From positions 248,001 to 312,000 of the forward strand of contig NW_024704743.1 in NCBI RefSeq assembly GCF_018977255.1: a stretch of 64,000 nt of DNA. The letters are read 5' to 3'. The notes beneath the pieces were generated by a model. The model worked only from the letters and a program-made list of their open reading frames with translations, was not told the DNA's origin and did no database searches. This document shows, piece by piece, positions 2,730 through 34,209 of this stretch (position 1 is its first letter; each line of letters begins with the position of its first letter). This stretch comes from Callorhinchus milii (taxonomy: Eukaryota). The translations under genes were made by a program, and so were the position numbers.

Positions 2730-3730
2730 AAAATAATAATAATAATAATAATAATAATCCTTCCGTTTGATACAGCGCCTTATCACGTCGTTGAGACGTC
2801 CCAAAGGGCTTCGCGGGATACACTGTAAAGCGAATTGACTGTGTATTCTGAGGGCGGAACGACCCCACAAACAGTCGTGGATTGAGTGACCAAATCATTG
2901 TTATTATTATTTTGGGGAGGGGAGGGGTCATTACCCCCGACAAAGCGATCCGCCAATCGACTGACGACCGGGTTCCTGATTACTGCTGAGGAAACAGAGC
3001 CGCGCGCGGAGTAAGGAAACAGAGCCGCGCGCGGAGTAAGGGAACAGAGCCGCGCGCGGAGTAAGGAAACAGAGCCGCGCGCGGAGTAAGGGAACAGAGC
3101 CGCGCGCGGAGTAAGGGAACAGAGCCGCGCGCGGAGTAAGGAAACAGAGCCGCGCGCGGAGTAAGGGAACAGAGCCGCGCGCGGAGTAGGGACGAGCCGC
3201 GCGGAGTAAGGGAACAGAGCCGCGCGCGGAGTAAGGGAACGGAGCCGCGCGCGGAGTAAGGGAACGGAGCCGCACGCGGAGTAAGGGAACGGAGCCGCGC
3301 GCGGAGTAAGGGAACGGAGCCGCACGCGGAGTAAGGGAACAGAGCCGCGCGCGGAGTAAGGGAACGGAGCCGCGCGCGGAGTAAGGGAACTGAGCCGCGC
3401 GCGGAGTAAGGGAACAGAGCCGCGCGAGGAGTAAGGGAACGGAGCCGCGCGCGGAGTAAGGGAACGGAGCCGCGCGCGGAGTAAGGAACGGGGGCCGCGC
3501 GGAGTAAGGGAACGGAGCCGCGCGCGGAGTAAGGGAACGGAGCCGCGCGCGGAGTAAGGGAACGGAGCCGCGCGCGGAGTAAGGGAACAGAGCCGCGCGC
3601 GGAGTAAGGGAACGGAGCCGCGCGCGGAGTAAGGGAACAGAGCCGCGCGCGGAGTAAGGGAACAGAGCCGCGCGTGGAGTAAGGGAACAGAGCCGCGCGC
3701 GGAGTAAGGGAACTCGCCCAAGGTTTCGCC
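2730..3730 (-). mobile_element. tRNA-derived SINE copy containing an internal 25-bp tandem expansion
   Basis: (AAT)n tail and body from 2730 to about 2990; the SINE resumes after the array (ctcgcccaaggtttcgcc). Confidence 0.85.
2990..3712. repeat. 25-bp minisatellite (GGAACAGAGCCGCGCGCGGAGTAAG), about 29 copies
   Basis: Directly visible periodicity. Confidence 0.95.
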
Positions 3731-3782: not shown

Positions 3783-4710
3783 CCCCTCTCCCACACCCCT
3801 CCATCCCCCTCTCCCGCACCCCTCCATCCCCCTCTCCCACACCCCTCCATTCCCCTCTCCCGCACCCCTCCATCCCCCTCTCCCACACCCCTCCATCCCC
3901 CTCTCCCACACCCCTCCATCCCCCTCTCCCACACCCCTCCATCCCCCTCTCCCACACCCCTCCATCCCCCTCTCCCGCACCCCTCCATCCCCGTCTCCCA
4001 CACCCCTCCATCCCCCTCTCCCGCACCCTCCATCCCCCTCTCCCACACCCCTCCATCCCCCTCTCCCGCACCCCTCCATCCCCCTCTCCCGCACCCCTCC
4101 ATCCCCGTCTCCCGCACCCCTCCATCCCCCTCTCCCGCACCCCTCCATCCCCTCTCCCGCACCCCTCCATCCCCCTCTCCCGCACCCCTCCATCCCCCTC
4201 TCCCGCACCCCTCCATCCCCGTCTCCCGCACCCCTCCATCCCCCTCTCCCGCACCCCTCCATCCCCCTCTCCCGCACCCCTCCATCCCCCTCTCCCGCAC
4301 CCCTCCATCCCCCTCTCCCGCACCCCTCCATCCCCCTCTCCCGCACCCCTCCATCCCCCTCTCCCGCACCCCTCCATCCCCCTCTCCCGCACCCATCCAT
4401 CCCCCTCTCCCGCACCCCTCCATCCCCCTCTCTCGCACCCATCCATCCCCCTCCCGCACCCCTCCATCCCTCTCTCCCACACCCCTCCATCCCCCTCTCC
4501 CGCCCCTCCATCCCCCTCTCCCGCACCCCTCCATCCCCCTCTCCCGCACCCCTCCACCCCCCTCTCCCGCACCCCTCCATCCCTCTCTCCCACACCCCTC
4601 CATCCTCCTCTCCCACACCCCTCCATCCCCCTCTCCCGCACCCCTCTATCCCCCTCTCCCGCACCCCTCCATCCCCCTCTCCCACACCCCTCCATCCCTC
4701 ACTCCCACAC
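3783..4710. repeat. 23-bp C-rich minisatellite (CCATCCCCCTCTCCCGCACCCCT), about 40 copies
   Basis: Directly visible periodicity; G-tract-rich on the - strand. Confidence 0.95.
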
Positions 4711-4765
4711 CTCTGGGAAAGTTCCGGGACTCGGACCTACCTGATCGAACGCTTTGCCTCTGCAG

Positions 4766-4911
4766 GAGAGTTGGGAGCGTTGGAGCCGAGGAGCTCCGGG
4801 ACAGAGCAGAGCGCGTCCGCGGAACAGCCCCCAACCTCGGTCAGCGAGAGGTCGGCGGTCTATCAGTCTAAAATACCCGGAGCCGGTATTTTGGGTTGCC
4901 CGGCAAAAGCG
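4766..4911 (+). CDS. XIRP1: Putative upstream coding exon of the XIRP1 locus (phase 1 to 0; [10 protein letters not shown]...[13 protein letters not shown]...PAKA)
   Basis: Acceptor tttgcctctgcag and perfect donor GCG|gtgagt around an open frame. [10 protein letters not shown] resembles the SL(K/R)(E/D)RxAKYQAAV motif of XIRP2/LIMA1 N-termini as recalled. Confidence 0.6.
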
Positions 4912-5740
4912 GTGAGTATTCGGCATTCCCGACATTCCTGCTGTCAGTCTGATGTCGGCAGGGGCCGGTCGCGGGGTCACTGGGACTCAACAGCCGCTCA
5001 AACTCTGCGCCCACACAAAATACACAGTCACTACTCTGCGAAGCGCCTCGAGGCGTCTCGAAGACGTCAACAAATGACATTTGTAGAGCGCTGGGGCACC
5101 CCGGGGCGCTGGGCACTGATGGATTTGAACCTGGGGGTGGGGTGCGGTTTGGGGGATCAGGGAGGGGGGTGGAGGGCGGGGAGGGTAGGGTAGGGGGTAA
5201 GGGTGGGGGGGGGGGCGGGAGTGTGAGCGAAGGCGCTGTTGCGCCCCAAAGGAGGCAAAGGGACTGTGGGATGGAGTTCCAAAGGGTTGGGGGGCAAAGA
5301 GGCCGTGATGGCCCGACCCTCGATGGTGGTGGGGGAACAGGACGAGGGCCGGAGACGCGCGAGGAACACACGAGCTTCGAATCGCGAGCAGATTAAAGAC
5401 GTCTCAAGTTCCCCCCACGACCTTCAAGTCAACGTCCTCTCTCAATTGGCCTCGACAGGGAGTCAATGCAACCTCCACCCAGTACGACAGCGACACCTGC
5501 CGTCGATTTGATGGCACTGCAGTGCACATGGGGTGGGGGGGGGGGGGGGGGGGGTGGGAGAGGGCGGACGGAGCGAAGCACGTCTCGCCCACAAAGTACA
5601 CAGTCACTACGCTTACGCTTCACGGTATATTGTGTGAAACGCTTTGAGGCGTCCGAACGACGCGATAAGGCGCCTTATCAAATGCAATTTATTATTATTA
5701 TTATTATTATTATGGGGGTCTTATCGGTGTCTGTTTACAG

Positions 5741-5794
5741 GTTGTCTCATCACCTGAAATCGTCGCTCCAAACAGGAGCCTTCATCAGATCGAG
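5741..5794 (+). CDS. XIRP1: Putative 54-bp upstream coding exon (phase 0 to 0; VVSSPEIVAPNRSLHQIE)
   Basis: Acceptor ctgtttacag and donor GAG|gtaagg around 18 open codons. Phase is compatible with both the 8017 and 17258 acceptors. Confidence 0.6.
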
Positions 5795-6099
5795 GTAAGG
5801 GTGGGGGGGTGGGGGGTGGGGGGTGGGGGGGCGGTGGGTGTCTGATGGTCGTTGGCATTTTCTCTGTGGGTAAATGTGTGTCTTTATTCGTGTTTCACTG
5901 TGGTTTACCCCCTCAATCCTCACCCCAAACACCCGCTCCCAAGGTCACAGGTCTCCAGAGGTGTAACCAGAGGACACGGGTTTAAGGTAATTGGCAGAAG
6001 AACCAAGAGGGGAGACCGGGAGACTATTTTTTTTTAAACCCAGAGAGTTGTTACGTAGTGCCTCGGAAAGGCCGGTGGAAGACTCGGGCGCAGAGACGC

Positions 6100-6490
6100 G
6101 GAAAGTGAAAGAGAGGAAGAAGAGACCGGAGATGGAGAGGCAGAGAGGAATGATGAGATAGAGAAAGAGAGATGGAGAGAGAGAGAGAGAGTGAGATGAA
6201 GAGTTAGGTGGTGAGAGAGAGAGAGAGAGAGAGGAAGAGCGAAAGAGAGAGGGAGACAGAGCAACGAAGAAAGATAGAGAACAAAACGGAGACGCAAAGA
6301 GGAAGGGTGAGATGGAGAGATGTGTGAGAGAGAGAGAGATTGCAAAGGAAGAGAGAGAGAGAGTGAGAGGGCGGTGTGGGGTGGGGGGGGGGGGGGGGAG
6401 TGGGGCAGAGGGAGTGAGAGACAGACAGAGAGAGGAGTGGGGGAGGGAGAGAGAGGAGATGTCTCAAAGCAAGAGAGAGAGAGCAGGTGG
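6100..6490. repeat. (GA)n-rich low-complexity tract
   Basis: Directly visible. Confidence 0.85.
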
Positions 6491-6774
6491 TGGTGGGTGG
6501 GTTGTGGGGAGAGGTGAAGCAGAAGTGATTGGGGTGACGTTCCCGCTGAGTGAGATTTTTTTCCGGTGTGTGGATTCTTTGTTAAGAAATATACTAACGC
6601 CCACAAAATACACGGTCACTTCACCCTACGGTGTATTCTGTGAAGCGCTTTGAGACGTCTCGACGACGTGATGAGGCGCTAATGTCAAATGCCAGGATTA
6701 TTATTATTATTATTATTATGAACTATCGCAAAATTAGACCCAATTCCTTCTGTGTCCGTGTTGGTGTGTACACC

Positions 6775-7110
6775 TGTGTGTGTGTCTGGGGGTGTGTGTG
6801 TGTGTCTGGGGGTGTGTGTGTGTGTCTGGGGGTGTGTGTGTGTGTCTGGGGGTGTGTGTGTGTGTGTCTGGGGGTGTGTGTGTCTGTCTGGGTGTGTGTG
6901 TGTGTGTCTGGGTGTGTGTGTGTCTGTCTGGGTGTGTGTGTGTGTGTCTGGGGTGTGTGTGTGTTCGTGTCTGGGTGTGTGTGTGTGTCTGGGTGTGTGT
7001 GTGTGTCTGTCTGGGGGTGTGTGTGTGTGTCTGGGTGTGTGTGTGTGTCTGTCTGGGGGTGTGTGTGTGTCTGGGGGTGTGTGTGGGGGGGTGTCTGGGG
7101 GGGTGCGCGC
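6775..7110. repeat. (GT)n microsatellite punctuated by CTGGG(G)
   Basis: Directly visible. Confidence 0.93.
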
Positions 7111-8016
7111 GCGCATGTTTGCAGTGGTTTTGACTAATATGCGCTTAAAGGGACATTAAAGCGCGTCGATCGGACATTCCTGGCCAATGAGATGACATCG
7201 TTTGCATTGTGAGCGTGTGACAGGCACCATCACACACGCACACGCTCACGCGCACGCACACGCCCTCCGCCCGCGCTCCGAGGAAATAACAACTTTCTTT
7301 AACATAAGCGGACTCACCTTAAGGTGGTTGAGGCCAGAAAGGACACTGGGACTCATTGAAACAGCAGCCGGACCCTGTGATGGCGGGGAGTGGGGGGGGG
7401 GGGGGGGGGGGGGGGGAGGGCGGGTGTTCTGGAGGGAGCAGATCAGATGGCCTGAAAGGGTCTTCTTCATCCAAACCGATCTTGCGAGGCTCGCCACCAA
7501 GACTGTACTCTCTCGGAAACCAGTGACCGTCCTCGCTCGGAGACCGATAACTCAGCCTGGCTCATCGGCAGGACCTGGAAGGACAGACCGGTCACTTGTG
7601 TGTGTTGGGGGGTGGGGGGGGGGTGTCCAGGGAGTCAACACCCTCAGCTCCAGTTGACCCTGCAAGCCAAAGCCCTAAGGGTAGGGTGGTCCTAGCTGGA
7701 CAAGCAACGGGAAAAGTTTGCCGAACTGTGTGCTGTGACCATTAACCAGCGCCGTGTGCAGTTTGTGTGCAAGAGTGGGATCGCAGAAGTCGGAGGAAGA
7801 AAAGAAAAAAGTTTCTCCCTTCACATCCCTCCCTCCCTCCCTCCCTCCCTCCCGCTTTGACTCATTACTAACAGCCTGGCTTGAGTTTGAAAGAAAAAAA
7901 AACATTAACTAACAGAGAAAAGGTGGAGGAGACCCCCACCTCTCACCCCCATTCCTCCTCCTCCTCCCCCCCTCCCTCCTCTCCTCTCACCACCTTCTCA
8001 CCTTGTTTCCACGAAG

Positions 8017-11000
8017 ATGGAGAGGAACGAAGACAGAAACCGGGAGCGAGAGGGAGTGGGGTCCACGGAAGGCTTGCCGCCCCCTCCCCCCGACCCCTCG
8101 GCCTTGCCCCTGCCGCCCCCTCCTCAATCACTCGCCCAAACCAGGCAGCAGCGCCAGATCAATGAGTTGAAGCGACTTTACCGCCACATGCGGCCCGAGC
8201 TGAGGAAGAACATGGAGCTGGTACTGAGCGAGGAGTGGGGGGAGGTCTTGGACGCAGAGCGGGTGGCCTCGGGAGCCACCGCGGAGACCCCCGACCTCTC
8301 CCCCCCCGGCGAGGTCCAATCCATGCGATGGATCTTCGAGAACTGGCCCCTGGACATCATCGGGGACCATCAAACCGCCAAGCGTCTGAGAGAAGAGGAG
8401 ACCGTGCCTCTTGGGGATGTGAGAGGGACCTCGCAGATGTTCGAGGCCCAGAACCTAACGGAGACGGGGGACCAGCGAACGGAGACCCCCAGGGTGGAGA
8501 GGGGGGACGTCCGCACGGCTCTGTGGCTATTTGAGACCCAACCCATGGACTCGCTCAACAAGGTCTCCACGGAGGAGGGGGAGCTCCAGGAAGCAGTGCT
8601 CAGGGAGAGGGAGGCCATCCCCGGGGGGGACGTCAGCGGGGCCAGGCTCCTCTTCGAGACCCAACCCTTGCACCGGGTGGGACGCAGCGGGTCGGCCGAA
8701 GAGCGCAGCGTCCTTCAGCTACGTTCGGAGATCCAGGAGCTGAGCGGGGGGGTGAGCCGGACGGTGGGGCTGTTCGAGACCGAACCGCTCTGCGCCATCC
8801 GGGAGCCGGGGGGTGTCATGCACCGGGTGCGCTCGGTGTGCCGGGAGGAGATACAGCACAGCGATCAGGCCAAGAGCGCGCGCTGGCTCTTCGAGACCCA
8901 GCCCCTGGGGGACATCAGTGGAGGAGAGCACTCGCCAATGGTCAGGGTGGTCCGGGGCATCTCGCTGGAGGAGGAGGCCGGGCGGGGGACCGGGGGGGTC
9001 GGTGTCGGGCGAGCGCGCTGGCTGTTTGAGACCCAACCACTGGACGCCATTCGTGAGCGGAGCTCGGAGCTGGCGGAGGAGTGCGAGAACATCAAGGTGG
9101 TGGAGGGCGGAGACGTCAGAAAGTGGAGGTCTCTGTTCGAGAGCAAACCTCTGGACTCGAGGCCCCCGGGCGAGGGGGAGGGCGAGGAGGTGGGGGGGGA
9201 GACGAGGGAAGCGGTCACCGGAGGGGACGTGCGTTCCACCCTCTGGCTCTTCGAGACGCAGCCCATGGACTCCCTGAGGGACAGCTTCGAGGTGGGGCAG
9301 CTCAGGAGGGTGGTGACGGAGGAGGAGAAGGGGGATGTCAAGCAGAAAGCCCGGGAGTTCGAGAGCCGGCCCCTGGAGGTCACCCGGGGCCAGCCCGGCG
9401 AGGAGAAGGAGGAGGCGGCGGACGTCAGGAAGGGAGACGTCAAGGCCTACCAGCGCCTCTTCGAGAGCCTCCCACTGGACGGGATCAAGGAGCCGGGCGG
9501 GGAGATGGTCGCCATACGTTCCCAGGTCATCGGGGGCAACGTGCGGGAGAGCCGGGCCTTGTTCGAGAACCCGCCGCGCTACGCCATCGCCGACGGGGCC
9601 GGGGGTTACCACCAGGTCAGGACAGTGAGCCGGGAGGAGGAGGAGGCGATGGGCAGCGGGGGGGACGTGAGGAACTACAGGTGGGTCTTCGAGACACAGC
9701 CTCTGGACCGGCAGGGGTGCGAGGAGGCGCAGCTGGTGAAGGGAATCACCAAGGAGGAGGCGTGGGTGGGCGATGTGGGCACCGCCCGCTGGCTCTTTGA
9801 GACACAGCCCCTCCGGGGCCTGGCACCCGATGCCGGGGGCGAGACGGAGGAGCAGAGGAAGGGCGGCGGCGAGGTCAAGACATGCCGTTGGCTCTTCGAG
9901 ACGCCGCTGGCCGACGCCCGGCTGGAGCGGGCGCAGAGGGAGGCCGACACCGCCCCGGGGACGGGAGGCGACGTCCGACGGTGGACCTGGCTGTTCGAGA
10001 CGCCGGAGGTGCCGGGGGAGAGCGCGAGCGGCGAGAGGAGCTTGAAGGTGACGGGCCGCGCGGACTCGGACACCGGCACGGCGAAGCACCTCTTCGACTC
10101 GGAGCCCGTAGTCGTCGGTGGAGGCGGCGTGAGATACACCAGCAAAGTGGACGTGCGCTCGGGTGACGTCTCCAGGGAGAAGGAGATCTTCGAGAGGTCC
10201 TCGCTGGACGCCATCGGGGAGGAAGCCAGATCCGGGGACGGGGAGGAGCAGGGGCCCGAGCCGGGGGCCGTCCGCAGGTTCACCTGGCTCTTCGAGAACC
10301 GCCCCATGGATGCCATCGGGGAGATGGACGCCCGCCCCGCTTCCAGCTGGGCCGTGGCTGACGTGGCCGCGGGGGACGTAGGCGGGAAGAGGTTTGTGTT
10401 CGAGACGCGCTCGCTGGACCGAATCGGGGGCGACGAACCCTCCCCCTCGCCCTCTCCGGCCCCCGCCCTAAACCCGGAGCCCGGAGTCCCAGGTGGGGTC
10501 CGCTCCCGCACCATGCTCTTCGAGAGCCGCCCGCTCTACGCCATCCGCGACCGCGAAGGTCTCTACCATGAGGTGACCACGGTGAAGAAGGACGAGGTGG
10601 TGAGGGGGGACGTGAGGGGAGCGCGGTGGCTGTTCGAGACCAAACCCCTGGACTCCATCCGGCCCTCGGACGAGGTGTTCGTGATCCGCGCCGTCACTCA
10701 GGAGGACGTCCATCGCGGGGACGTGACGGCCGCTCGCTGGAGGTTCGAGACCCAACCCCTGGGCTCCATCGGGGACCAAGCCCCTCCACCCAGCGCCAGG
10801 ATGGTGGAGGAGGTCCAGGGAGGGGACGTGAGCTCGGGCAGGGAGATATTCGAGCAGGAGCCGGCCAGGAGTTACGTGAGGACGGTCAGCGTGAGCGACA
10901 TCCAGAGCGGAGACGTTAGGACGTCCACCTGGCAGTTTGAGAACCTCCCCATCGATTCCCTCAAGGGCTCGGCCGAGGAGAGCGAGGGGCAGGTCAGCAC

Positions 11001-14000
11001 AGTCCACCGGGAGGACGTGGAGAAGGGAGACGTCAAGAGGTGCACTTGGCTCTTTGAGTCTCGCCGGTCGGACGGGTTTGGGGACGCGGGCGCCGGGCAG
11101 CCCACCCGAGAGGACGTCCCGCCCGGCGACGTCAAGTCGACAACGTGGCTGTTTGAGACCACCCCTCTGGACGCCTTCCAGCAGGGTCCGGGCAGGCAGG
11201 AGGTCGGCCCTCCGGCCGGCCAGAGCGTGAGGAGTAGTTTAAGGTCGCTATGTGCCGCAGGAGCCGTGCGGTCGGGCGGGCTGGCGATCGAGTCCTGCCG
11301 AGTGGGCACGGTCAGCATGGTCAAATACCGAGTGGCGGGCACTGACGAGGGCACGAACAGGGGGTGCGTGGGTGAGGCGGACATCCTGAAAGAGGAGGTC
11401 ATCCACGGGAACCTCCAGAGGATTCTGGTGGAGCTGCTGGACAAGACCAATGTGGCTCCGCAGGGCATTCTCCTCCGAGAGGACAAAGATGGCCGGATCT
11501 CCTCAGCCAAGGTCCAATTCTTCAGCCGGCCGCAGCCGGGGGCCGAGCAGGAGGCAGCCCACTCTCCCGACCTCAGGGTCATCCACGATCTTCTCCGGCC
11601 GGGCTCCTCGGTCAAAAAGGGCATCTTGATCCAAGAGAGCGGCAAGGGCGAAGCTGAGATGACCGTCTACTCGCTGCTCGACCGCGCAGAGGCTCAGACC
11701 GAGACCAGGGGAAGGGCTGAGAATGGCAAGTCCATGGTGGGTTCTCTCCCAGCCAACAACCAGGAGCAACCAGCTCCAAGCCTGGCCGGGCAGCAAGAGA
11801 GCGGGAAGAGCAGGAACGTTCAACTCATTGCCAGTTGCGTCGATGCGGGCGATTTGGACTCCCTGAAGAAGGAAGAACCTGTCCAGGAGAAGGAGAAGGT
11901 GGAGGAGAAGGTTGCCCAGAGGCGCTTCGAGGAGATTCCTGGCACGGTGAATACCAAAGAAGTGAGAGGAACTAAGGTCTCCTCGGTTGCCTGCAGTCTC
12001 ACTCCAGAGATCCAGGGAGCGGGAGAAGCCCGTGTGAAATTGGGTCGTTCTGCCCATGTCCATCGGGCTCACAGGCCCTGCCTTGGACCAGCGGTGACGG
12101 TGTCTCGAGGGGAGGATTCGGGCCTGCAGGACGGGGCTTCTGGAGCCAGCGAGCAGCAGCTACAGGTGGCAATGGAAGGCATGAGGGAGGCCACAGCCCA
12201 GGCGCAGGCCCATGGTCGAAGCAGCCAGCACAGAGCCGGAGTAGGCCCAAGCCCAGCACTGAGCCCCAGCCGGAGCCAGCAGGTCAGTGAGATCGCGGGG
12301 GATCGAGGAGGTGGAGGAGGAGGAGGCCTCGGCCGGCCCACGGTCCCAGCCACCGCCCGCTGCCAGAGTCACGGGGCCTCCCACCAAGCAGCCTCGGCCC
12401 AGACTGTGTCCACCAGCCTTCATGGCTTGGGGAGGCTTGGGTTGGAGAGCTCAGCGCTGGGTGTTGAGACTGGGTCAGTCCCAGGTCTGGGACGGGGCCT
12501 AGGCCGAGGCTTGGGACTGGATTTGGGCCTAGACCAAAGCCTGGAGCTAGGCCCGGGCCTGGGGCCGGAGCACAGCCTCCCCCGCCTCGCTCTTTGCGTT
12601 CAGGACCGAGTTTGCCTCCCGCCACAGCCTGATGCTCCCTCTCCTCCTCTCCCCCCAGCTTCACTGAGGCAACAACAACAACAACAACTACAACTACAAC
12701 AGCAGCACCAACAATATCCAGCTTTGGCCTCCTCCAGTTCCAACTCTACCTCCAGGCCTGAGGCCGACACTCCGCCTGCCCCAACCCCAGCTCCAGGCCG
12801 CGGACCCAAGCCCAAGCTGCCTCCCAAACCAGCCCATTTGCAAGACCTTCCCCGCCGTGTGAGCAACAGCCAAAGAAAACCACATTCGCTCAACAGAGGC
12901 CCTCAGCCCGAGAGTAGGCCCCAAGGCCTTGTCCAGGCCTCGCCAGCGCCCATGGGCCTGAGAGCAGAGGAGGAGGAGTTTAGCAGCAAGGTCGAGGCGA
13001 AGACCAGAGTCCCCAGGACACCCCTGCAGATGGCCGAGGAGGAGCACAGGAGCAGGAGGAGAGAGGGAGAGAATGTGGCCCTCAACAAGGAGGGGAGAGA
13101 GACCTTGCTGAGGGAGCCCAAGGCTAGGGGCCGGGAGACGGAGAAGGAACGCCGCAAGAGGCTGTCCCTCCACAAGGAGGAGATTGAGAGAGGCCACGTG
13201 GAGGCGGCCATGGACATTTTCGAGAGCCTGAGGAGACGCGAGGAGCTGCAGAAGATCTTGACCAGCGTGGGGGAGTTTGAGGAGGGGGAGACGTCACGGG
13301 TGGATGTCAGGGCTCTGAGGAGCCTGTTTGAGGAGATCCCCGAGTGGGTGGTGGGGAGCAAGGAGGAGAAGACAGTGGCCAAGGGTCCGCAGGGGCCTCA
13401 TGGCTCCAAGACGGAGGCCAAGGGGGTCGAGGATACCCCCTCACCCTCCGTCAGGGTGGTCTTCCAGGACCTGGAGCGGGCGAGCTCCGAGGTCATCCGC
13501 CTGAAGGAACAGACCCTGGCCAAACTTGTTGAGATCGAGGACTCCATCCAGAAGGCCCTACGCTCCGTTTCCAGCCTTCGCTCGGAGGCTGACATCGCCG
13601 GCCTGTCCGGGCTTTTCCGGGAGTCGCTGGACTCTGAGACGCCAGCGCAGAGGCAGGGGCGAGTGAGGGTCACTCCAGCGTTAGAGGTCCCCTCCCCCAA
13701 CCCAAGGGTCCTCGTCCCCTCCCCCTCCTCCCCATCCTACATCTCCATCCAATCCGCCGCCCGTAAGCCAGACCACCCCCTTAAGAGGGCGGCGCTAGGG
13801 GCCCAGCCCCCGACCGCTCCCCCGGACACCGGCCGCTCACCGCTGGTCTCTCCCGCTTCCCCAAAGCCGCCTCCGCTCTGCAACGGAGCCCCACTCGACC
13901 CCGCGAGCGAGGGCGTCCCTTTAAGCGCGTTCAAAGGGGCGGGCGCCTCGTGCCCCCGGAGCAAAAGCGTGGTGGAGTTCAACACCGGCTCGGCCCAGGG

Positions 14001-14280
14001 CGAGATCATAGGCACCACCATAGTGACCGAGGAATACCAGCAGATCGACAGCTTTGGCCACAAGCTGGTGACCTCCAAAACCTCTACCACGGTCACCAAA
14101 CAAAGCGAGTCCCAGCCCCCCAACAGGTACCACCAGCTCACCCCCTCCCCATCCTCCCTCCTCCAGCCCAGGTGCCCGTCGGTGAGAGCCGAGGAACCGG
14201 GGCCCTGCCCACCAGCTGCTCCCGGCATCGGTGTGGTCTTTCTCTCCTTCGGTAACCCCACCGCCTCCGTCAAGAGGTGA
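8017..14280 (+). CDS. XIRP1: Xin actin-binding repeat-containing protein 1, giant Xin-repeat exon (2087-aa ORF)
   Basis: About 27 repeats of the type G(D/E)VxxxxWLFETxPLD. N-terminal proline-rich LPPPPP/LPLPPPP followed by QQRQINELKRLYRHMRPELRKN, MRWIFENW, LRSEIQEL and DVRSTLWLFETQPMD..VGQLRRV, which match XIRP1 rather than XIRP2 as recalled. A polypyrimidine tract and AG (8015-8016) lie directly before the ATG. Confidence 0.93.
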   Translation: MERNEDRNREREGVGSTEGLPPPPPDPSALPLPPPPQSLAQTRQQRQINELKRLYRHMRPELRKNMELVLSEEWGEVLDAERVASGATAETPDLSPPGEVQSMRWIFENWPLDIIGDHQTAKRLREEETVPLGDVRGTSQMFEAQNLTETGDQRTETPRVERGDVRTALWLFETQPMDSLNKVSTEEGELQEAVLREREAIPGGDVSGARLLFETQPLHRVGRSGSAEERSVLQLRSEIQELSGGVSRTVGLFETEPLCAIREPGGVMHRVRSVCREEIQHSDQAKSARWLFETQPLGDISGGEHSPMVRVVRGISLEEEAGRGTGGVGVGRARWLFETQPLDAIRERSSELAEECENIKVVEGGDVRKWRSLFESKPLDSRPPGEGEGEEVGGETREAVTGGDVRSTLWLFETQPMDSLRDSFEVGQLRRVVTEEEKGDVKQKAREFESRPLEVTRGQPGEEKEEAADVRKGDVKAYQRLFESLPLDGIKEPGGEMVAIRSQVIGGNVRESRALFENPPRYAIADGAGGYHQVRTVSREEEEAMGSGGDVRNYRWVFETQPLDRQGCEEAQLVKGITKEEAWVGDVGTARWLFETQPLRGLAPDAGGETEEQRKGGGEVKTCRWLFETPLADARLERAQREADTAPGTGGDVRRWTWLFETPEVPGESASGERSLKVTGRADSDTGTAKHLFDSEPVVVGGGGVRYTSKVDVRSGDVSREKEIFERSSLDAIGEEARSGDGEEQGPEPGAVRRFTWLFENRPMDAIGEMDARPASSWAVADVAAGDVGGKRFVFETRSLDRIGGDEPSPSPSPAPALNPEPGVPGGVRSRTMLFESRPLYAIRDREGLYHEVTTVKKDEVVRGDVRGARWLFETKPLDSIRPSDEVFVIRAVTQEDVHRGDVTAARWRFETQPLGSIGDQAPPPSARMVEEVQGGDVSSGREIFEQEPARSYVRTVSVSDIQSGDVRTSTWQFENLPIDSLKGSAEESEGQVSTVHREDVEKGDVKRCTWLFESRRSDGFGDAGAGQPTREDVPPGDVKSTTWLFETTPLDAFQQGPGRQEVGPPAGQSVRSSLRSLCAAGAVRSGGLAIESCRVGTVSMVKYRVAGTDEGTNRGCVGEADILKEEVIHGNLQRILVELLDKTNVAPQGILLREDKDGRISSAKVQFFSRPQPGAEQEAAHSPDLRVIHDLLRPGSSVKKGILIQESGKGEAEMTVYSLLDRAEAQTETRGRAENGKSMVGSLPANNQEQPAPSLAGQQESGKSRNVQLIASCVDAGDLDSLKKEEPVQEKEKVEEKVAQRRFEEIPGTVNTKEVRGTKVSSVACSLTPEIQGAGEARVKLGRSAHVHRAHRPCLGPAVTVSRGEDSGLQDGASGASEQQLQVAMEGMREATAQAQAHGRSSQHRAGVGPSPALSPSRSQQVSEIAGDRGGGGGGGLGRPTVPATARCQSHGASHQAASAQTVSTSLHGLGRLGLESSALGVETGSVPGLGRGLGRGLGLDLGLDQSLELGPGLGPEHSLPRLALCVQDRVCLPPQPDAPSPPLPPASLRQQQQQQLQLQQQHQQYPALASSSSNSTSRPEADTPPAPTPAPGRGPKPKLPPKPAHLQDLPRRVSNSQRKPHSLNRGPQPESRPQGLVQASPAPMGLRAEEEEFSSKVEAKTRVPRTPLQMAEEEHRSRRREGENVALNKEGRETLLREPKARGRETEKERRKRLSLHKEEIERGHVEAAMDIFESLRRREELQKILTSVGEFEEGETSRVDVRALRSLFEEIPEWVVGSKEEKTVAKGPQGPHGSKTEAKGVEDTPSPSVRVVFQDLERASSEVIRLKEQTLAKLVEIEDSIQKALRSVSSLRSEADIAGLSGLFRESLDSETPAQRQGRVRVTPALEVPSPNPRVLVPSPSSPSYISIQSAARKPDHPLKRAALGAQPPTAPPDTGRSPLVSPASPKPPPLCNGAPLDPASEGVPLSAFKGAGASCPRSKSVVEFNTGSAQGEIIGTTIVTEEYQQIDSFGHKLVTSKTSTTVTKQSESQPPNRYHQLTPSPSSLLQPRCPSVRAEEPGPCPPAAPGIGVVFLSFGNPTASVKR

Positions 14281-14339
14281 GGCAGGTTGGGTTGTCGCCT
14301 GAGAATCTCTTCACCGCCAGGACCACGCAAGCCAACCCT

Positions 14340-14545
14340 CAACCCCCAGCCCCAACTCCCCCCAACTCCAGCCCCAGGTCCTGACCCCAATCCTGGCCCC
14401 CAACACAACCCTAAACCCCAGCCCCAACTCCCCCCAACTCCAGCCCCAGGTCCTGACCCCAATCCTGGCCCCCAACACAACCCTAAACCCCAGCCCCAAC
14501 CCACAACTCCAGCCCCAAACAGCCCGACCCCAGCCCCAACCCCAA
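14340..14545. repeat. C-rich tandem duplication in the XIRP1 3'UTR/intron
   Basis: The block cccagccccaactccccccaactccagccccaggtcctgaccccaatcctggcccccaacacaaccctaaa occurs twice in tandem, plus partial copies. Confidence 0.85.
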
Positions 14546-15160
14546 CCCTCAGTCCCAGCCCTACCCTTAAGCCCTAACCTCAACCCCCCCCCACCCTGCC
14601 CTCATCCCCCATCCGGGTCCGTAATTATTTCACCCCCAATAACACGGACCCATCGCCACTGATCCCTACTATCTCTCCCAAAAAACCTCATCCCAGGAAT
14701 AACGAGGAGGAAGGAATCCCGGCGGAAATCCGTCTACTCTGGAATTAAGACGCCCCCCCCCACCACCCCACCCCACACCCATCTCCCGCCCCCACCCCCT
14801 ACACACATACACGCACCACACAGAGAATGACGTGTGCTTTAGTGACTAGATCACTAGAAATTCCGGTATTATTTAGCGTCCCCCCCCCCCCACCCCCCTC
14901 CCCCCCCACTCCATCCTATTCTATTTTCTCGCACTTTGTAGTTGCAGCTCCCCCCCTCCCCACAATAATACAGTAAGACGTAACGGTCTCTCCTTTTCGC
15001 TCTATAAACTGCTCGCTCTCTATTCTCAAATGTTTCTCTCCCCCCCACCCCCCCACCCCTTTCTCCCTTCTCCCCACCTCCCCCCCCCACCCCACGACCC
15101 CCTCTCTCTCTCTCTCTCTCCCCCTTTTTTAATATAATTACTTTTGATTACTTTCTGGTT

Positions 15161-15166
15161 AATAAA
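15161..15166 (+). terminator. Candidate polyadenylation signal for the Xin-exon-terminal XIRP1 transcript
   Basis: AATAAA about 880 nt after the 14280 stop, followed by T/GT-rich sequence. Confidence 0.45.
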
Positions 15167-16044
15167 TCCTTTTTATTATTTGGTGATTATTTCTTTTCTC
15201 CTGTCTTCTTTTCTGAATTCTCTGACCGGGGGGGGGGGGGGGGAGGTGGGTGGGTGGGTGGGGTGGGGGGGTGTTGTGTGTGCTGGGGGGTAGTGCGTGA
15301 GGTATGTGTGTGGGTGTGGGGAGTGGGTGGGTCGGGGGTGATTTTGCTCTGCAATAATCCAACGTGTTAGGAAACGTGTTGATTGTGATATATTTGGTAT
15401 CGATATTATTTTATTGCTGTATTATTATATTATTATGAACTTGTTATTTCTCGGCTTTCTATACCTCACCCATTGATAATAATCCTTGCGTTCGACACAG
15501 CCCGGTCTGAAAAACGCTTGACAGATTTTACTGTTAAGTGTAGTGACTGCGTTCGGTGGGTGAAGCCCATTTCCTCACAGCGAGTGACCACCGATTTTGT
15601 TGGCAAACGGGCTGCCGCCTTTCGGCCGGAAGGAGGCCATTCAGCCCATCGGAGGGATTGAGGGAGGGAGGGAGTCCCAGAGCTTGCTGAGGAGGGACAG
15701 TCACTCTCACTTCTGAGTCAATCACTCGGACTCTCTCACCTTGTGTCCGCCTGGCTCAGTTTGTGGCACACTTGCCTCTCACTCAGATGGCATGCCCAAT
15801 TGGCTGCACTTTGTTTCGACCACAAAATACACAGCCACTACACTTTACGGTACATCCCGTGAAGCACTTTGAGACGTCTCAACCGCGGGATAAGGCGCAA
15901 CACGGTGGATTCAAGGCTCGGACCAGGTTTTGAGCTCACAGGCCAGGGTTACACTCCAGGGCAATGGTGGCGGAGCACTGGCGATATTCACACAGGAAAA
16001 CTACATTGCGTCGTCAGAGGTGCCAATGAAATTCATGATACTTG

Positions 16045-16390
16045 GGAGTTCTGTAGTTTGGTGGTTAGAGCGAGAGGACCCCGGTTCGATTCCCAGACGG
16101 GGCATAACCTCAGGCAAGTTTCCTTACCCCCACACGCCCCTGATACCCCGGCAGTAAGTAGGAACCCGGTGGTTAGTCAATTGGCAGATCGGTTTTTCGG
16201 GGGTAATAATCCCTTCAAAATAAATAAAAAATAATAATAATTTGGTCACGACTGTTTGTGGGACATTGCTGTGCGCAATTGGCTGCCGCTTTTCGCCCAC
16301 ATGCTATACAGTCTACAGTATTTTCTGTGAAGCCCTTTGAGACGTTTCGAAGACGTGATGAGGCACGATATCAAATGCAAATATTATTAT
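16045..16390 (+). mobile_element. tRNA-derived SINE, near full length
   Basis: B box ggttcgattcc, shared body (gtaagtaggaacccgg...gctgtgcgcaattggctgcc) and (TAT)n tail. Confidence 0.85.
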
Positions 16391-16829
16391 TGTCCACCCA
16401 CAAAAACCGAGATCAACAATTTGCATTTACTGCCTGTGTGGTAGCGTCTCAAACGGGTTGAGGAGCTTTTATCCGTCCAAACCTATTGCTCTCTACGTAT
16501 TTTCGGGGAAGTGTTCCATTTCTATCTCTGAGATTTCTCGCACTGTGTAGGTGGGATTCATGGAATTGCCAGTTTGGTTTGAAGACACTTAAGCAACGGT
16601 TATGGGTTTCCGCCTGTGTCAGGCACTCGGCCGACCAAAAAAAAAAGAAGATATTTGTGGTGGGTGGTGGTGGGGGGCGGAATATGCGAGACCAAACACA
16701 ACCTCTAGCCCTTGTTCTATCTTCTCTCCAATACTTTCCAGCCTCGGTCACCCATTACAACAGGATTTAATAGAAACGTTGATGGGAGAGTGGAGGTGCA
16801 GTGGAGTGTGTAGGTCTCTGGCAATTGTG

Positions 16830-17190
16830 GAGTCCCATAGTGAGCACTCGCCTCACGAGCGAGCGGACCCGGGTTCGATTCCCTGGCGGGGGGCAAAACC
16901 TTATGCAAGTTTCCTTATTCCACACACCTCTGTTCACCTCGCAGTAAGTAGGAACCCGGTTGTTAGTCGATTAGCGGATCACTTTCCGGGGCTAAAAATC
17001 CCTCCAAAAAAATGTGGTCGCTCAATTTTCAGGAATGTTTGTGGGACACTGCTGTACGCAATTGGCTGCCGCATTTCTCCCACAAAATATACAGTCAATT
17101 CACTTTAAAATATATCCGTGAAGCGCTTAGACATGTCTGAAGAACAACGTGACAAGGCCCTGTATCAAATGCAAGGATTATTATTATTAA
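16830..17190 (+). mobile_element. tRNA-derived SINE
   Basis: Same family; ends ~70 bp upstream of the LIM exon acceptor. Confidence 0.85.
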
Positions 17191-17257
17191 TTAGGATTCC
17201 CCACCAGCCACCGGGCTCCACCACCATCTCATCAACTATCTCTCGTCTCGGTTTCAG

Positions 17258-17379
17258 AGCCCGGCGACCGACCTACTTAATTCTCATCAAAGCCCGGCCC
17301 AGTCAGTGAACCAACTGACAGCAGACAAGCCTCGGACTCTCTCCAGCTTCCAGTGTATCATCTGCCACAGCAACCTGAG
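17258..17379 (+). CDS. XIRP1: LIM-domain exon 1 (degenerate first zinc finger; ...LTADKPRTLSSFQCIICHSNLS)
   Basis: Acceptor ctcggtttcag and donor AG|gtcagt, phase 0 to 2. LxADK...FxCxxCxSxLS matches the XIRP2/LIMA1 LIM exon pattern. Confidence 0.78.
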
Positions 17380-17551
17380 GTCAGTGACTGACCTATCCCC
17401 AGCCCTAGCCTTTCCCTATCACCATCTCGGCCGTCACCCAAAGCCTATCACTGCCCTTGCCCCTTCTCGCCCTAACTCACTCCTCCCTTCACCTTGACTC
17501 ACCTCTCCCAGCCCCAGATCCCCAATTAATCCACATCAACAGAAATTTGTG

Positions 17552-17832
17552 GTGTCCTGTAGCTCAGAGGTGAGGACACTCGCCTCGCAAGCGAGATGAC
17601 CCTGGTTCGATTTCCAGCCGGGCCGGTTGTTAGTCGATTGGCGGATCATTTTTCCGTTGGGGGGTGGGGGGGGGGATAACCTCAAAAAAAATAATAAATC
17701 GGTTTGAGGGACACTGCTGTGCGCAATGGGCTGCCGTCTTTCGCGCACAAAATAGTGCACTTTACAGTATACTGTCCCGAAGACGTGATAAGGCGCTAGA
17801 TCAAATGCAAGCGTTATCATTATTATTATTAT
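17552..17832 (+). mobile_element. tRNA-derived SINE with an internal deletion, in the LIM intron
   Basis: Head gtcctgtagctcag..., body and (TAT)n tail. Confidence 0.85.
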
Positions 17833-17873
17833 TTGATGTTTATCATTTTAAAAACATCTTGTTTCTATTCCAG

Positions 17874-20800
17874 CTTAAATGGTTATGCTTCAATGAAGGG
17901 GGACTTTTACTGCATCCCTCACTTTCAGCAGCTGCTCAAGTCAGAGGGCTTTCACGGGGAAGAGTTTAAACCTGAGCAGAAGAGTAATGGACCCTTGGAG
18001 GGAGACGGCGCTGATCCCAAAGCCCAAGTTGAAGAATCGAGAGGGCAACTGAGCAGGACAACCAACGTTGGGGAAACAAGTCAACGGGATGTCATCCTCA
18101 GTCCTGCCCACACTAGCAAGCTTGACCTTGAGCCGAGCGGAAAATCAGGGTCACCCAGGAAGCTGAAAATTACTTGGCCTCCTCCTAAAGAAGCCCAGAG
18201 GATTGTAGACCAAATCGCAATGTTGATAATACTCAACGCCTACTACCAGCCCCGGTCAATGCCTCTGAACTGGACCAAAGCCAACCCTTTGAGGACAACC
18301 CCAAGGAGTTTGAGCGAAAGGAGCACTTTGTTACATCCGACCACATTCCTTTAGGATCGAGTGTTAAGCATGGAAACGAGGACATCAACGGAAAACCCGA
18401 ACACACCATGAGGGAGCTCAGGTCCTCGCCCCAAGCCAGGGGGGATAATAAGGACCACCCCAGTATCAAGGAACTGACCCGGGTTTTTGAACTGGGAGAC
18501 TCAAGCAGATCCATTGGGAAGAATGTAAAGCAGGAAATGGCGACGGAGACTGAAGGAGATCTCAAAGGGAGCAAAGAGAAGCCCAGCGTTTCATCCCAGT
18601 TGAAGACAGACGAACTGGCCCAGAGTCTTAAGGAGCTGAGTGAGATTTTTGAGTCGAATGCTTCGGGGGAGGTGAGTGGAAAGGAAGCGAACTGTGAAGA
18701 TCCGGTGAAGAACGAAGACAAGCTCCATCTTGTTTCAGGCCCTGAAGTCAGAGCTGAACAACAGGACCTGAGTGAGCGGAGGCAGAGTTTTGAGCTTAGT
18801 GATGAGGACAGACCCAATGAAGGGACAGTTGTAGTGGCCACCAAACCTGGAGAAAGCCCAGAGGGACTGAGAGACAAGAGCATTGAAGAGTCTTTAGATG
18901 ACGGAACAAGTTGTGAAGACAGGGGTAGTTTGGAGGAGTCACTGCTGACCACACCAGCACTATCACCGAGCACGTTACCGAGCTCAGATAGTCAAGCCAC
19001 CTCGGTGCTCAGCTCCCCGCACTCGAGTGAAGGTAAAGATGAATCAATGTCAAATTGTGATACCAATTCCCCCAGCGAGCAGACAGACACTAGTGCCTCC
19101 TCAGCCAGTCTCGCTGTTCAAGATCCCATGGAAAACGGGCAAGAATGTATTAAAAGCACAACAAAGGGAATGGGCGAGTTTGGCGAGACGTCCATTGAGA
19201 TCGGACAGGAGGACGAGGACCGATTGACCGCCAGCCAGGATACCTCAGATGTGGCTGAGGAAGCTCTGGTGAGGGACATTGGAGTGGCTATGTCTGCCTC
19301 ATCCAGCGAGGATTACAATTCTTGTTTAGACAGTGATATCTCAGAGGAAATGTCTACTGTTCTGGAGGACAGTGATGAGGCTGACAGGGATCAGCTCCAG
19401 TCGCTTGATGTTTCTCACCGAGAGGATGAGAAGGGAATCGCTGCGGAAACACTCCAGATTGAGAGGAAAGAGACAGAAACTGATGAGAATTCAGAGGTTT
19501 CCAGAGCAAACCAGGATGGTGTGATTGCTGATGAACCAGCTGAAAATAAGGAAGATATCAAGACGGAGAATCCATCACTCAATATTGGGGAGCAAGATAC
19601 AAAGGAACAAGTGGCTTTGGACCCTGAGGTGGACAAGACATTCAATTCTGAGGTGGACAAGATGATGGACATGACTTTGAATCCGAAGATGGCCATTAAG
19701 AATTCCTCTAATAAGACCACTCTTGCAAAGGAAACGGCGAAAGCAAAAGGCCCCAGTAAAAGTCCGTTGGCCAAACTGTTTGGCTTCAGTGACTCAGGTA
19801 ACGCCAAGAAGACAACAGCAGAACAACTCAAACCACACAAACCCAACTCACAATCAGCATCCAATCTGGAGAAAACTCAGGAACAAAAGGTTTCACATCC
19901 AGAGAAATCTCAGGAAAAAATCATCTTCGATCTGGAGAAAGCTCAGGAACAGAAGGTTTCAGATCCAGAGAAATCTCAGGAAAAAATCACCTCTGATCTA
20001 GAGAAGTCTCAGGAAAAAATCACCTTCAATCTGGAGAAAGCTCAGGAACAGAAGGTTTCAGATCCAGAGAAATCTCAGGAACAAATCACCTCTGATCTAG
20101 AGAAGTCTCAGGAAAAAATCACCTTTGATCTGGAGGAAGCTCAGGAACAAAAGGTTTCAGATCTAGAGAAATCTCAAGAAAAAATCACCTCTGATCTAGA
20201 GAAATCTCAGGAAGAAATCACCTTCGATCTGGAGAAAGCTCAGGAACAGAAGGTTTCAGATCCAGAGAAATCTCAGGAAAAAATCACCTCTGATCTAGAG
20301 AAGTCTCAGGAAAAAATCACCTTCGATCTGGAGAAAGCTCAGGAAAAAAAGGTTTCAGATCCAGAGAAATCTCAGGAACAAATCACCTCTGATCTAGAGA
20401 AATCTCAGGAAAAAATCACCTCTGATCTGGAGGAAGCTCAGGAACAAAAGGTTTCATATCCAGAGAAATCTCAAGAAAAAATCACCTGTGATCTAGAGAA
20501 ATCTCAGGAACAAATCACCTCTGATCTAGAGAAATCTCAGGAAAAAATCATCTCCAAAGTGGAGAAATTTCAGAAACAAGGAGCCTCCGATTCAAAGAAA
20601 ACCTCTAAGGAGCCAGAGGTAAAGGAGGATGGGAGCGAGGACCTCCTGGTCCTGAGCGGATCACAAACATCAAGCGAGCATTCGACAGAGGCTAGCCTCA
20701 ACACATCGCTGACCGAACTCCCCATTGAACCAACCAAAACCACTACGGAGCAGACACAGCCCAACTCTGTCATGGGCAAAATGGCTGGAACTAACGCGGT

Positions 20801-20954
20801 TGAAAGCAGACCCACTGGGGGGAACGTGGCAAGCGATGTCACCGACCTTTTCGACCCACTCAGTCAAGATCCCAACCCCGGCACGGAACCCAGCCAGCAA
20901 CCCAACAGCAGCCCCAACTCTGCTGACCTCTTGGACTTCGAAGACCGTGGTTAA
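17874..20954 (+). CDS. XIRP1: LIM-domain exon 2 / terminal exon (LNGYASMKGDFYCIPHFQQLLKS...KLKITWPP...acidic tail), with a 1-nt frameshift near 18190-18230
   Basis: Acceptor ttctattccag in phase 2 completes C-x2-C-x17-C-x2-H. The LIM frame stops at 18354, while the -1 frame is open from 18189 to 20954 (contains the 848-aa ORF 18408-20954). Confidence 0.7.
19866..20591 (+). repeat. Coding 33-bp (11-aa) tandem repeat, 22 units, (L/P)EK(S/A)QE(K/Q)(I/K)(T/V)(S/F)D
   Basis: Counted from the translated ORF 18408-20954; higher-order period of three units. Confidence 0.93.
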
Positions 20955-33083: not shown

Positions 33084-33847
33084 CTGAAAGCAAAAGGTAT
33101 CAGATAAACAGGAGGCTGGGCAGGGGGGAAATCTTCAATACCTGTACAAACAGCGTAAAGTTAAGGCACACATTTCTTTCACCCCGGGGTTAAGGTTCTA
33201 TATATGGTGTAGGCGCTACAGTCTATTCAGACATTCAAGAGGCAGATCTTTAGATCCTCGGTGAGGAAGGTTAACAATAATCCTTGCATTTGACACAGCG
33301 CCTTATCACGGCTTTCAGACGGCTCAAAGCGTTTCACAGGATATACTTTAAAGTCAATTGACCGTATATTTTGTGGGCCAAAACAATACTAAATTACATT
33401 TCCACAGCACCTTTCACGACGGGAGGACGTGGCAGGACGCTGGACAGTCAGGGATTTGCACCCGAGCTGGGGGTTGCGATCAGGAGGCGTGTAATGCAGG
33501 TGTGGGGGGATGCAGAAGGATGAGCACCAGCCAGGCTGAATGTAAACTTATGGAACGGGCTCCCCAGGGAGACAGAAGGTGGAAGCAGAAAATATCATTT
33601 GTTTCAAGAACAAACGAGACAGATTTCTGCTAGAAATATCTGGGGATACAGTATATAGCTTGGGGATCACCATGACAAAGCGACTGACGCGATGGTGGAA
33701 GGCGTAGAAAATTCTTATGTTTCTGAGCTGTGCCTTGTATGAATCGACGAAGCCTGGATGTGAAGGAGGGTGGCGGGGACCCCTGATTGACTTTGGACAA
33801 AGAATGAAGGGCGGACCAGCAGCTGGCTGGAGCGATACGACGTGTAC

Positions 33848-34045
33848 CTGGGAGGCTGGGAGCTGATGCTGGGCTGCAGTTTGCTGGGAAGGGTCCGACA
33901 AGGGGACTGAAGGCTGGGCTGTAGGCACCACGTTGGTGTGAGGAGCAGTCGCGGGGGCGTTCGCTGTGGGCTGAGGTAGCACTTGCTGCTGGACTTGGCC
34001 GCTTGGCTGTGGAGTTGGGACCGCCGTCTCCGTTGATACGATGAG
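33848..34045 (-). CDS. OXSR1: OXSR1 exon 13, P/Q/A/T-rich linker (LIVSTETAVPTPQ...HQLPASQ)
   Basis: 198 bp, ctcag acceptor and gtacac donor, phase 0-0, at the expected position between exons 12 and 14. Confidence 0.75.
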
Positions 34046-34209
34046 CTGAGAGCAGATTGGACACCAAAATAAACCCCATCGATTTTCAATCATAAATTAT
34101 CATAATAATAAGTTGTACACTGTATAAAAAAAGCTATGGGCTGCTCTTTAGTGTGTAGCTTCAGGTCATAGCTTGATGCTAGGGATGGTACGGAGGATAA
34201 GATCAAATG

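Follow-up and report, generated by a model that had tools for sequence, protein, structure and literature searches.

A probable second, Xin-less product of the chimaera XIRP1 gene, with a half-decayed LIM domain

The window analysed here, 64,000 nucleotides of the Callorhinchus milii genome, carries a giant Xin-repeat exon with short coding exons before it and two LIM-related exons after it, all on the forward (+) strand, which raises the question of whether the giant exon can be bypassed to give a second protein. Such skipping is described for XIRP2 in the available passages of PMC3280289 and PMC10259482, where it yields a protein made of N-terminus, LIM and C-terminal domain, with short forms in mouse and from zebrafish xirp2a/b. 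For the muscle gene XIRP1 of mammals and zebrafish, the same passages of PMC3280289 describe a product "encoded by a large exon" whose only splicing is intra-exonic. For the chimaera we consider it likely that XIRP1 has two products, a Xin protein and a Xin-less protein made by a skip to position 17258.

On the combined criteria of tree, BLAST, C-terminus and synteny, the locus is identified as chimaera XIRP1. In a 12-row FastTree phylogeny that included a single XIRP2 row, the Xin ORF was the partner of elasmobranch XIRP1 with a support of 88; it forms a long branch there and is a compositional outlier. BLASTP with the Xin protein gave 1036–1256 bits against 11 XIRP1-type proteins versus 920 bits against XIRP2 of its own genome, and just one of the 120 matches listed for the Xin ORF bears the name XIRP2. 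The C-terminus is of the filamin-binding type, with a TSTTVTKQSE...F.FGN end conserved with other XIRP1 proteins. In human, XIRP1 is syntenic with WDR48 and GORASP1; here we found a WDR48-family match at 865 kb and a GORASP match at 880 kb of the same contig (C2), 0.6 Mb downstream of the locus. Three results count against synteny: no CSRNP was found on this contig, the RPSA-family matches lie elsewhere in the genome, and a MYRIP-family match is 36 Mb away. The sequence-only reading had already assigned the ORF to XIRP1, and the tree of the Xin region, BLASTP, the C-terminal end and the WDR48/GORASP linkage bear it out. Between 21000 and 64000 no gene was recognised by eye among ORFs of at least 75 aa.

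The gene starts about 8.4 kb upstream of the window's first position, and its six upstream coding exons encode 266 aa in total. The RefSeq model (XP_042188448.1) already joins the last two of these, exons A and B, together with four exons outside the window, to position 8017. Exon A, the fifth coding exon (4766–4911, 146 nt, ending in phase 0), contains an SVxERxAxY motif common to XIRP1 N-termini of other vertebrates and resembles exons of XIRP2 and LIMA1 in the same genome; exon B (5741–5794, 54 nt, phase 0 to 0) ends at the donor where the two products would diverge. The Xin exon ORF (8017–14280, 2087 aa) contains 17 Pfam Xin stretches (PF08043, E 1e-126), and its ATG lies at the acceptor, immediately 3' of a pyrimidine tract and AG. 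AG/GT ends are present at exons A and B, the 8017 acceptor, the exon at 17258–17379 and the 17874 acceptor, so that the exons, splice sites and phases first proposed for 4766–4911, 5741–5794, 8017 and 17258 stand. Because the ORF's stop lies inside the exon, however, the "skippable cassette", as it had been called, may be better described as an alternative last exon. The first AATAAA past the stop (15161–15166) may serve the Xin product as its poly(A) signal. A promoter motif scan, which found no CArG, six M-CAT matches and, in ATT repeats, two weak MEF2-like matches, was not interpretable. Neither exon A nor exon 17258 gave a meaningful Pfam match, and the tail gave none either.

The first LIM exon (17258–17379, 122 nt, phase 0 to 2) is degenerate. 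None of the four canonical zinc ligands of finger 1 is left in it (L, H, T and S stand where C, C, H and C are expected), and it holds the first two ligands of finger 2, all four of which are kept across the two exons (C, C, C, H). Pfam LIM (PF00412) did not match exon 17258 or 17874 scanned singly at E up to 1, and a genome-wide LIM scan, in which 150 of 219 candidates were scored, gave no match at the locus. When a profile of 19 other LIM segments was searched against 2541 six-frame pieces of the window, it recovered exon 17874 at E 6.5e-10, more than expected by chance; exon 17258 alone reached E 1.6, and the joined exons scored 54.6 bits. The intron between them interrupts the same codon in phase 2 in all four paralogues of this genome (XIRP1, XIRP2, LIMA1 and LIMD2). 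The EPLIN motif that follows the LIM domain is diverged in the window and, by eye, intact in XIRP2, LIMA1 and LIMD2; of the 16 homologous LIM rows, 15 likewise keep it, newt being the exception. A LIM tree left the window's LIM unplaced, on an end branch of 10 changes per column versus a median of 0.31. The early description as a LIM-type protein was overstated, finger 2 being intact and finger 1 without ligands.

The last exon (17874–20954) comprises the remainder of finger 2, the decayed EPLIN motif, a single KLKITWPP (18160–18183) and a long acidic tail. The joined exons are stop-free through the LIM-like segment and KLKITWPP, and as assembled their frame then runs into a stop at 18352–18354 while the tail (ORF 18189–20954) is in a different frame. 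The break lies at 18199–18203, between KLKITWPP and the tail, where a G absent from the assembly at 18199 was found in all three covering sequencing runs (X1, X2, X7), and all three old RefSeq isoforms read through it. The missing G is an assembly error, and its presence in the three runs rules out a real frameshift or a hidden intron. With the G restored, the Xin-less product is 1333 aa long and the last exon is open for about 1027 codons. Because the G is missing only from the assembly, the claim that splicing 5794 to 17258 gives an in-frame product with an acidic tail is true for the animal and not for the assembly. Within the tail are a KSPLAKLF motif (19758–19781) also found in sturgeon and several teleost tails, a coding tandem repeat (19897–20554, 6.6 copies of a 99-nt unit), and a terminal DLLDFED (20925–20945) that fits a clathrin-box pattern and that alone is not enriched over shuffles.

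Ten of the 13 tail differences listed are non-synonymous, so there is no sign of strong constraint. Together with the long LIM end branch and the fact that finger 1 and the EPLIN motif are gone, this would suit a skipped transcript that in the chimaera encodes no more than a functionless, decaying relic. We regard this as unlikely given the length of open frame in the last exon and the retention of the four finger-2 ligands, KLKITWPP and KSPLAKLF; the last-exon contig is also the deepest exon contig listed for run X2, although expression can be judged only poorly from contig depth.

Transcript evidence comes from assembled contigs of four of the 13 listed runs, none recorded as RNA, the RNA status of X2 being a guess by the mapping tool. 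Splice support is provided by one contig of this one run: 3097 nt long at depth 86, it meets the window at 17872 with 1065 letters before that point, and so enters exon 17874 with 1067 upstream bases that do not come from the Xin exon; no Xin-exon bin of X2 exceeds depth 22. The six upstream coding exons and the first LIM exon would account for 920 of these bases, and the 147 left fit UTR. The mapping skipped 5679–5840 (exon B) as repeat, and dispersed repeats took up its joint table, so junction 5794–17258 was not displayed; a depth of 8.57 in the exon-B bin of X2 was discarded as support, since repeat cover near 6052 explains it. None of the Callorhinchus milii proteins in the databases has the upstream exons connected with the LIM exons. 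The 2014-era RefSeq annotated the downstream exons as futsch-like (844–954 aa), with isoforms starting at 17893 inside the last exon, and a separate transcription unit with its own promoter would agree with this and with the undisplayed junction, all the more as short private exons are possible in 14840–17257 because repeats swamp that stretch. It is nonetheless quite improbable: no long piece of the X2 contig upstream of 17258 is among the pieces listed, the upstream bases fit the coding and UTR lengths just given, and homologues join the same N-terminus to LIM. Very unlikely is a main role of the downstream exons in extending the Xin exon at its 3' end. In favour of it, the sole AG|GTRAG donor consensus in 8017–15500 (14275–14282, a candidate) overlaps the Xin stop codon in phase 2, as at the 17874 acceptor, so that donor 14276 would be in frame to 17874 (Xin plus tail) and out of frame to 17258, and fusions of Xin to tail or LIM are predicted for proteins of sturgeon, Arapaima and Synaphobranchus. 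Against it, another X2 contig runs unspliced through 14276 to 14325, and nothing of the Xin exon is present in the deep last-exon contig; such a form could be a minor third product.

Bypass of the Xin exon, giving a second protein akin to EPLIN, an actin regulator, with its zinc-binding LIM half decayed, is therefore the most likely reading. The unannotated EPLIN-like isoform first suggested gains indirect support in its Xin-less form, whereas the upstream-to-Xin splice was already in RefSeq and only half of the LIM is left.

Homologues point the same way. Among 61 matches to an N-terminal profile, 13 carry an intact LIM without a Xin-type exon, and in three the N-terminus is followed first by Xin and then by LIM; none of the LIM forms among the 61 is from an elasmobranch or a sauropsid. 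The Xin-less models, several of the homologous models being gene predictions, come from teleosts and the newt Pleurodeles. Named "LIM domain-containing" or "LIM zinc-binding domain-containing", they share the chimaera's N-terminus and its branch to Xin-type or LIM sequence; in Denticeps, RefSeq isoforms have 261 residues in common, after which one path continues with M (Xin-type) and the other with FQ (LIM). A single WPP with a long acidic tail, as in the chimaera, occurs in four of the 13. The LIM of the models retains all eight ligands, whereas that of the chimaera is half decayed. In one teleost group, unlike the chimaera, the Xin repeats are decayed and little sequence follows the LIM. Word-based searches for Xin-less homologues (one protein among 69 candidates and one among 8000) are no evidence of absence. 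The chimaera has the XIRP2/LIMA1-like layout proposed as pre-duplication structure, yet this is not special to its lineage, and its copy is the decayed one.

Since teleost and newt models hold a Xin-less form with intact LIM, XIRP1 looks by sequence like a fourth EPLIN-class paralogue beside LIMA1, XIRP2 and LIMD2. A query with the XIRP2 last exon gave four matches in the genome, namely these three and the window's last exon, and Xin matches occur only on C2 and contig C6. Like the system that makes the XIRP2 short isoform, known as XEPLIN, chimaera XIRP1 has short exons, a giant Xin exon and two downstream LIM exons; as the other paralogue it differs in a Xin exon with a starting ATG and its own stop, one WPP motif instead of two, no terminal IKRNR motif, a tail of 917 aa against 375 aa and the half-decayed LIM. 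LIMA1 and LIMD2 share with it homologous LIM exons and a KxxIxWPP motif, and LIMA1 also an upstream SVxER/SLKDR-type exon, but both lack a Xin exon and have kept LIM and EPLIN motif intact. With published XIRP1 of mammals and zebrafish it shares Xin repeats, a proline-rich start and the conserved C-terminal end; it has six coding exons before and two after the Xin exon where the published gene has one large exon. In human, the available text of PMC3305314 counts three EPLIN-class members, LIMA1, XIRP2 and LIMD2. A limited literature search found no published statement of XIRP1 as a member; the available part of PMC2478706 has no passage on LIM, exon or shark, and PMC3306315 and PMC7709239 held nothing relevant.

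We propose that both products would share a start of six upstream coding exons ending at the phase-0 donor 5794. Joined to 8017, this gives the RefSeq-annotated Xin protein of 2353 aa, which ends in the Xin exon; joined to 17258 and then 17874, it would give the 1333-aa protein with N-terminal motifs, half a LIM, KLKITWPP and acidic tail. As both acceptors are in phase 0, splice-site choice would select the product, and it is probably linked to whether a poly(A) site past the Xin stop is used. The layout probably derives from an EPLIN-class ancestor, the four paralogues sharing the LIM intron. With its own ATG and stop the Xin exon is self-sufficient, which would let later lineages lose first the LIM exons and later the coding exons upstream. 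As finger 1 and the EPLIN motif have decayed in an open frame, the short product would work through its N-terminus and tail, most likely as an actin-associated scaffold and not through LIM, by analogy with mouse XIRP2, the one case for which the available text of PMC10259482 describes actin binding and force sensing of a short product.

More speculatively, and with considerable doubt, XIRP1 of non-amniote jawed vertebrates may encode a Xin-less protein that has been overlooked, could be a major product and would be the fourth EPLIN-class paralogue so far missing. Its acidic tail, with clathrin, adaptor and EH-domain-type motifs (DLL/DLF/DIF, DPF, NPF), would link actin to clathrin-coated membrane; the chimaera would keep this role despite the loss of half the LIM, and fish xirp1 big-exon mutants would not be nulls. 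Zebrafish xirp1 is reported as dispensable in the available passages of PMC3280289, and, if the zebrafish layout is the same, truncations in the big exon would leave the short product untouched, a point that matters for that dispensability. On the main reading, the two-product design dates from before the XIRP1/XIRP2 split and completes an EPLIN quartet, and the published description of XIRP1 as a gene with one large exon is to be revised. A series of decay would then run from an intact LIM in ray-finned fish and newt, through half a LIM in the chimaera and upstream exons with no LIM form found in turtles and birds, to one coding exon in mammals, as published.

The window lies at C2:248001-312000 of the Callorhinchus milii genome, and residues 40-1300 of its Xin ORF (8017-14280) match a named C. 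milii XIRP1-like record at 100%. XIRP1-like proteins of sharks and rays come next, with about 51%; the best 120 of 1169 matches include one named XIRP2. Genome-wide, Xin repeats occur in two places, this locus and C6:29.61 Mb, where the gene has an intact LIM domain and a CSRNP gene nearby and is taken as XIRP2. The assignment to XIRP1 made from sequence alone was borne out by BLASTP scores (1036-1256 bits against 11 XIRP1-type proteins, 920 against the same genome's XIRP2), by the C-terminal TTVTKQSE...F.FGN common to the window ORF and XIRP1 and not present at the end of the XIRP2 ORF, and by WDR48 and a GORASP 0.6 Mb downstream, which neighbour XIRP1 in human. Family searches for CSRNP and RPSA gave no match near the locus; the two CSRNP loci found lie on C6 and C27, and a MYRIP family match lies 36 Mb away. 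A FastTree (12 rows, a single XIRP2) also groups the window with elasmobranch XIRP1 with support 88, on a long branch of unusual composition, and otherwise agrees with the species tree. Elsewhere in the window, an open frame of 182 aa at 33548-34096 (minus strand) includes a stretch rich in Q, P and A.

AG/GT signals and the predicted phases are present at all five proposed exon ends. The splice of exons A (4766-4911) and B (5741-5794) onto 8017 is not new: RefSeq XP_042188448.1 (2353 aa), named 'LIM domain-containing protein' although it has no LIM, already includes it. Four further coding exons precede the window (C2:239618-239721, 241153-241204, 242155-242499 and 242866-242962), so that the six total 798 nt, or 266 aa. 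DNA-level boundaries were defined in the C. milii genome only; homologous N-termini stand ahead of the Xin exon in Heptranchias, sturgeon, turtle and bird models, and by eye an M directly follows the upstream part in 49 of 49 printed rows, many of them near-identical isoforms. Two long intronic minisatellites lie just before exon A (2989-3713, 25 nt x 29; 3783-4711, 23 nt x 41). Within 7150-7300, an M-CAT match at 7175 stands beside a CCAAT, 840 nt before the Xin ATG, and may mark an internal promoter that would give a Xin-only transcript.

The downstream exons (17258-17379 and 17874-20954) had been read as encoding a LIM-type protein, which stands as to homology but not as to an intact domain. 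A search with the XIRP2 last exon gave four genome matches, to XIRP2 (C6), LIMA1 (C27), LIMD2 (C23) and the window from 17884 onward (E 0.008), the first three named from sequence features. All four share a phase 2 LIM intron in the same codon, with first LIM exons of 122 nt in the window and 134, 134 and 137 nt in the others, and a profile from 19 related LIM segments gives the joined window exons 54.6 bits. Finger 2 retains its ligands (C, C, C, H), but finger 1 has L, H, T, S in place of C, C, H, C, the EPLIN motif has diverged, and Pfam LIM matched neither exon when they were scanned separately; the branch is too long for tree placement. LIM matches score identically on C1:17.97-18.00 Mb and on C44:0.52-0.55 Mb, which are likely a duplicated haplotig.

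When the exons are joined without the Xin exon, the frame is open through the LIM-like segment and KLKITWPP (18160-18183), as proposed, but stops at 18352-18354, and the acidic tail as assembled is in a different frame. Since an extra G follows 18199 in all three runs with covering contigs (X1, X2 and X7, the last covering introns like DNA; X4 has no cover there), and three old RefSeq C. milii proteins read past the stop, this break is an assembly error. Restoring the G gives, by arithmetic, a Xin-less frame of 1333 aa. On C6 (about 29602500-29602900, minus strand) the giant XIRP2 ORF ends at 29602590 where another frame resembles the C-terminal segment of XIRP2; a further frameshift in the assembly may be the cause.

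Four of 13 listed runs, none of the 13 recorded as RNA, were compared as contigs. A spliced Xin-less contig exists in one of them: a 3097-nt X2 contig (depth 86) aligns to 17872-19890 from its position 1066, and because it begins to match at 17872 it does not follow the intron before 17874. The two bases that it matches before 17874 would come from an upstream exon with AG at its end, such as 17258-17379. No Xin-exon bin exceeds depth 22 in X2 and no other piece of the contig was listed, so the 1067 upstream bases are not from the Xin exon; they would fit 920 coding plus 147 UTR bases. Short private exons within 14840-17257 may instead feed the downstream exons; the comparison skipped 5679-5840, around exon B, as repeat, and its joint table was filled by repeats. 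With one contig from one run in support of Xin-less splicing, we infer the 5794-17258 junction.

A HMMER profile of five aligned N-termini gave 61 matches, of which 13 have an intact LIM without a Xin-type exon, 3 have both, 8 have the Xin-type exon only and 37 neither. The LIM-only forms among 20 checked include those of Pleurodeles (1427 aa), Labrus, Mastacembelus, Astyanax, Gymnothorax, Anguilla, Clarias, Paramormyrops and Denticeps; no shark, ray, turtle or bird LIM form is among the 61. The trait extends beyond this lineage, as teleost and newt models have the Xin-less form with LIM intact. Denticeps RefSeq isoforms share 261 residues and continue with MAE (Xin-type) or FQ (LIM), Arapaima and Synaphobranchus predictions run N-terminus, Xin, LIM, WPP, tail, and the Heterodontus model terminates two residues past exon B. 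The newt is linked to XIRP1 by weak N-terminal similarity (profile E 5e-14, BLASTP E 1e-5 to 2e-4), and its protein has no BLASTP match to the chimaera protein. A teleost group (P0158, P0165/P0179, P0170, P0172, P0203) has an XIRP1 N-terminus, Xin repeats that have decayed and short isoforms whose LIM is intact, and is probably a second copy; 'LIM domain-containing protein' names both this group and the chimaera and coelacanth Xin proteins that have no LIM.

XIRP1-type products carry one WPP motif, whereas XIRP2 and LIMA1 carry two. The window shares a KS(P/A)LxKLF-like motif with sturgeon and three teleosts; chimaera and sturgeon tails gave no tail-wide BLASTP match. D[LI][LF] and NPF patterns can serve as endocytic motifs. 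Among seven patterns picked after viewing the sequences, D[LI][LF] exceeds 500 shuffles in six of six bony-fish tails (p <=0.024, uncorrected), and does not in the window and newt tails (3 each, p 0.056, uncorrected); the XIRP2 control has 2 (p 0.054), LIMA1 none, and NPF occurs in three of eight tails. Ten of the 13 tail differences listed (41 rows lie beyond these) are non-synonymous. The tail includes a coding 99-nt repeat (19897-20554). Old RefSeq isoforms measure 844, 910 and 954 aa where 1020 aa is computed, which suggests that the repeat differs in copy number or that introns were modelled wrongly.

Product choice would rest on competing acceptors and poly(A) choice; the first AATAAA is at 15161, and an X2 contig extends to 14325. 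The single AG|GTRAG in 8017-15500, at 14275-14282, overlaps the Xin stop and is a candidate donor that would join in frame to 17874. Elasmobranch XIRP1 proteins end K/R/N-R/K-C/S/F, and those of coelacanth, lungfish, turtle and bird mostly KK; judging by the proteins, such endings could be encoded with a GT at the corresponding position. The short product probably acts as an actin-associated scaffold. PMC10259482 describes the N-terminus of mouse XIRP2 as a presumed F-actin binder and reports that its C-terminal domain, not LIM, is recruited to strained fibres, which by analogy offers a reason why LIM could decay with the frame kept.

PMC3305314 lists three human EPLIN-class genes, and full-text searches of mainly open-access papers showed no account of a LIM isoform from XIRP1. 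The XIRP2 short-isoform system very probably extends to XIRP1, an apparently undescribed feature whose Xin-less form is already latent in database models and whose LIM is half-decayed in C. milii.
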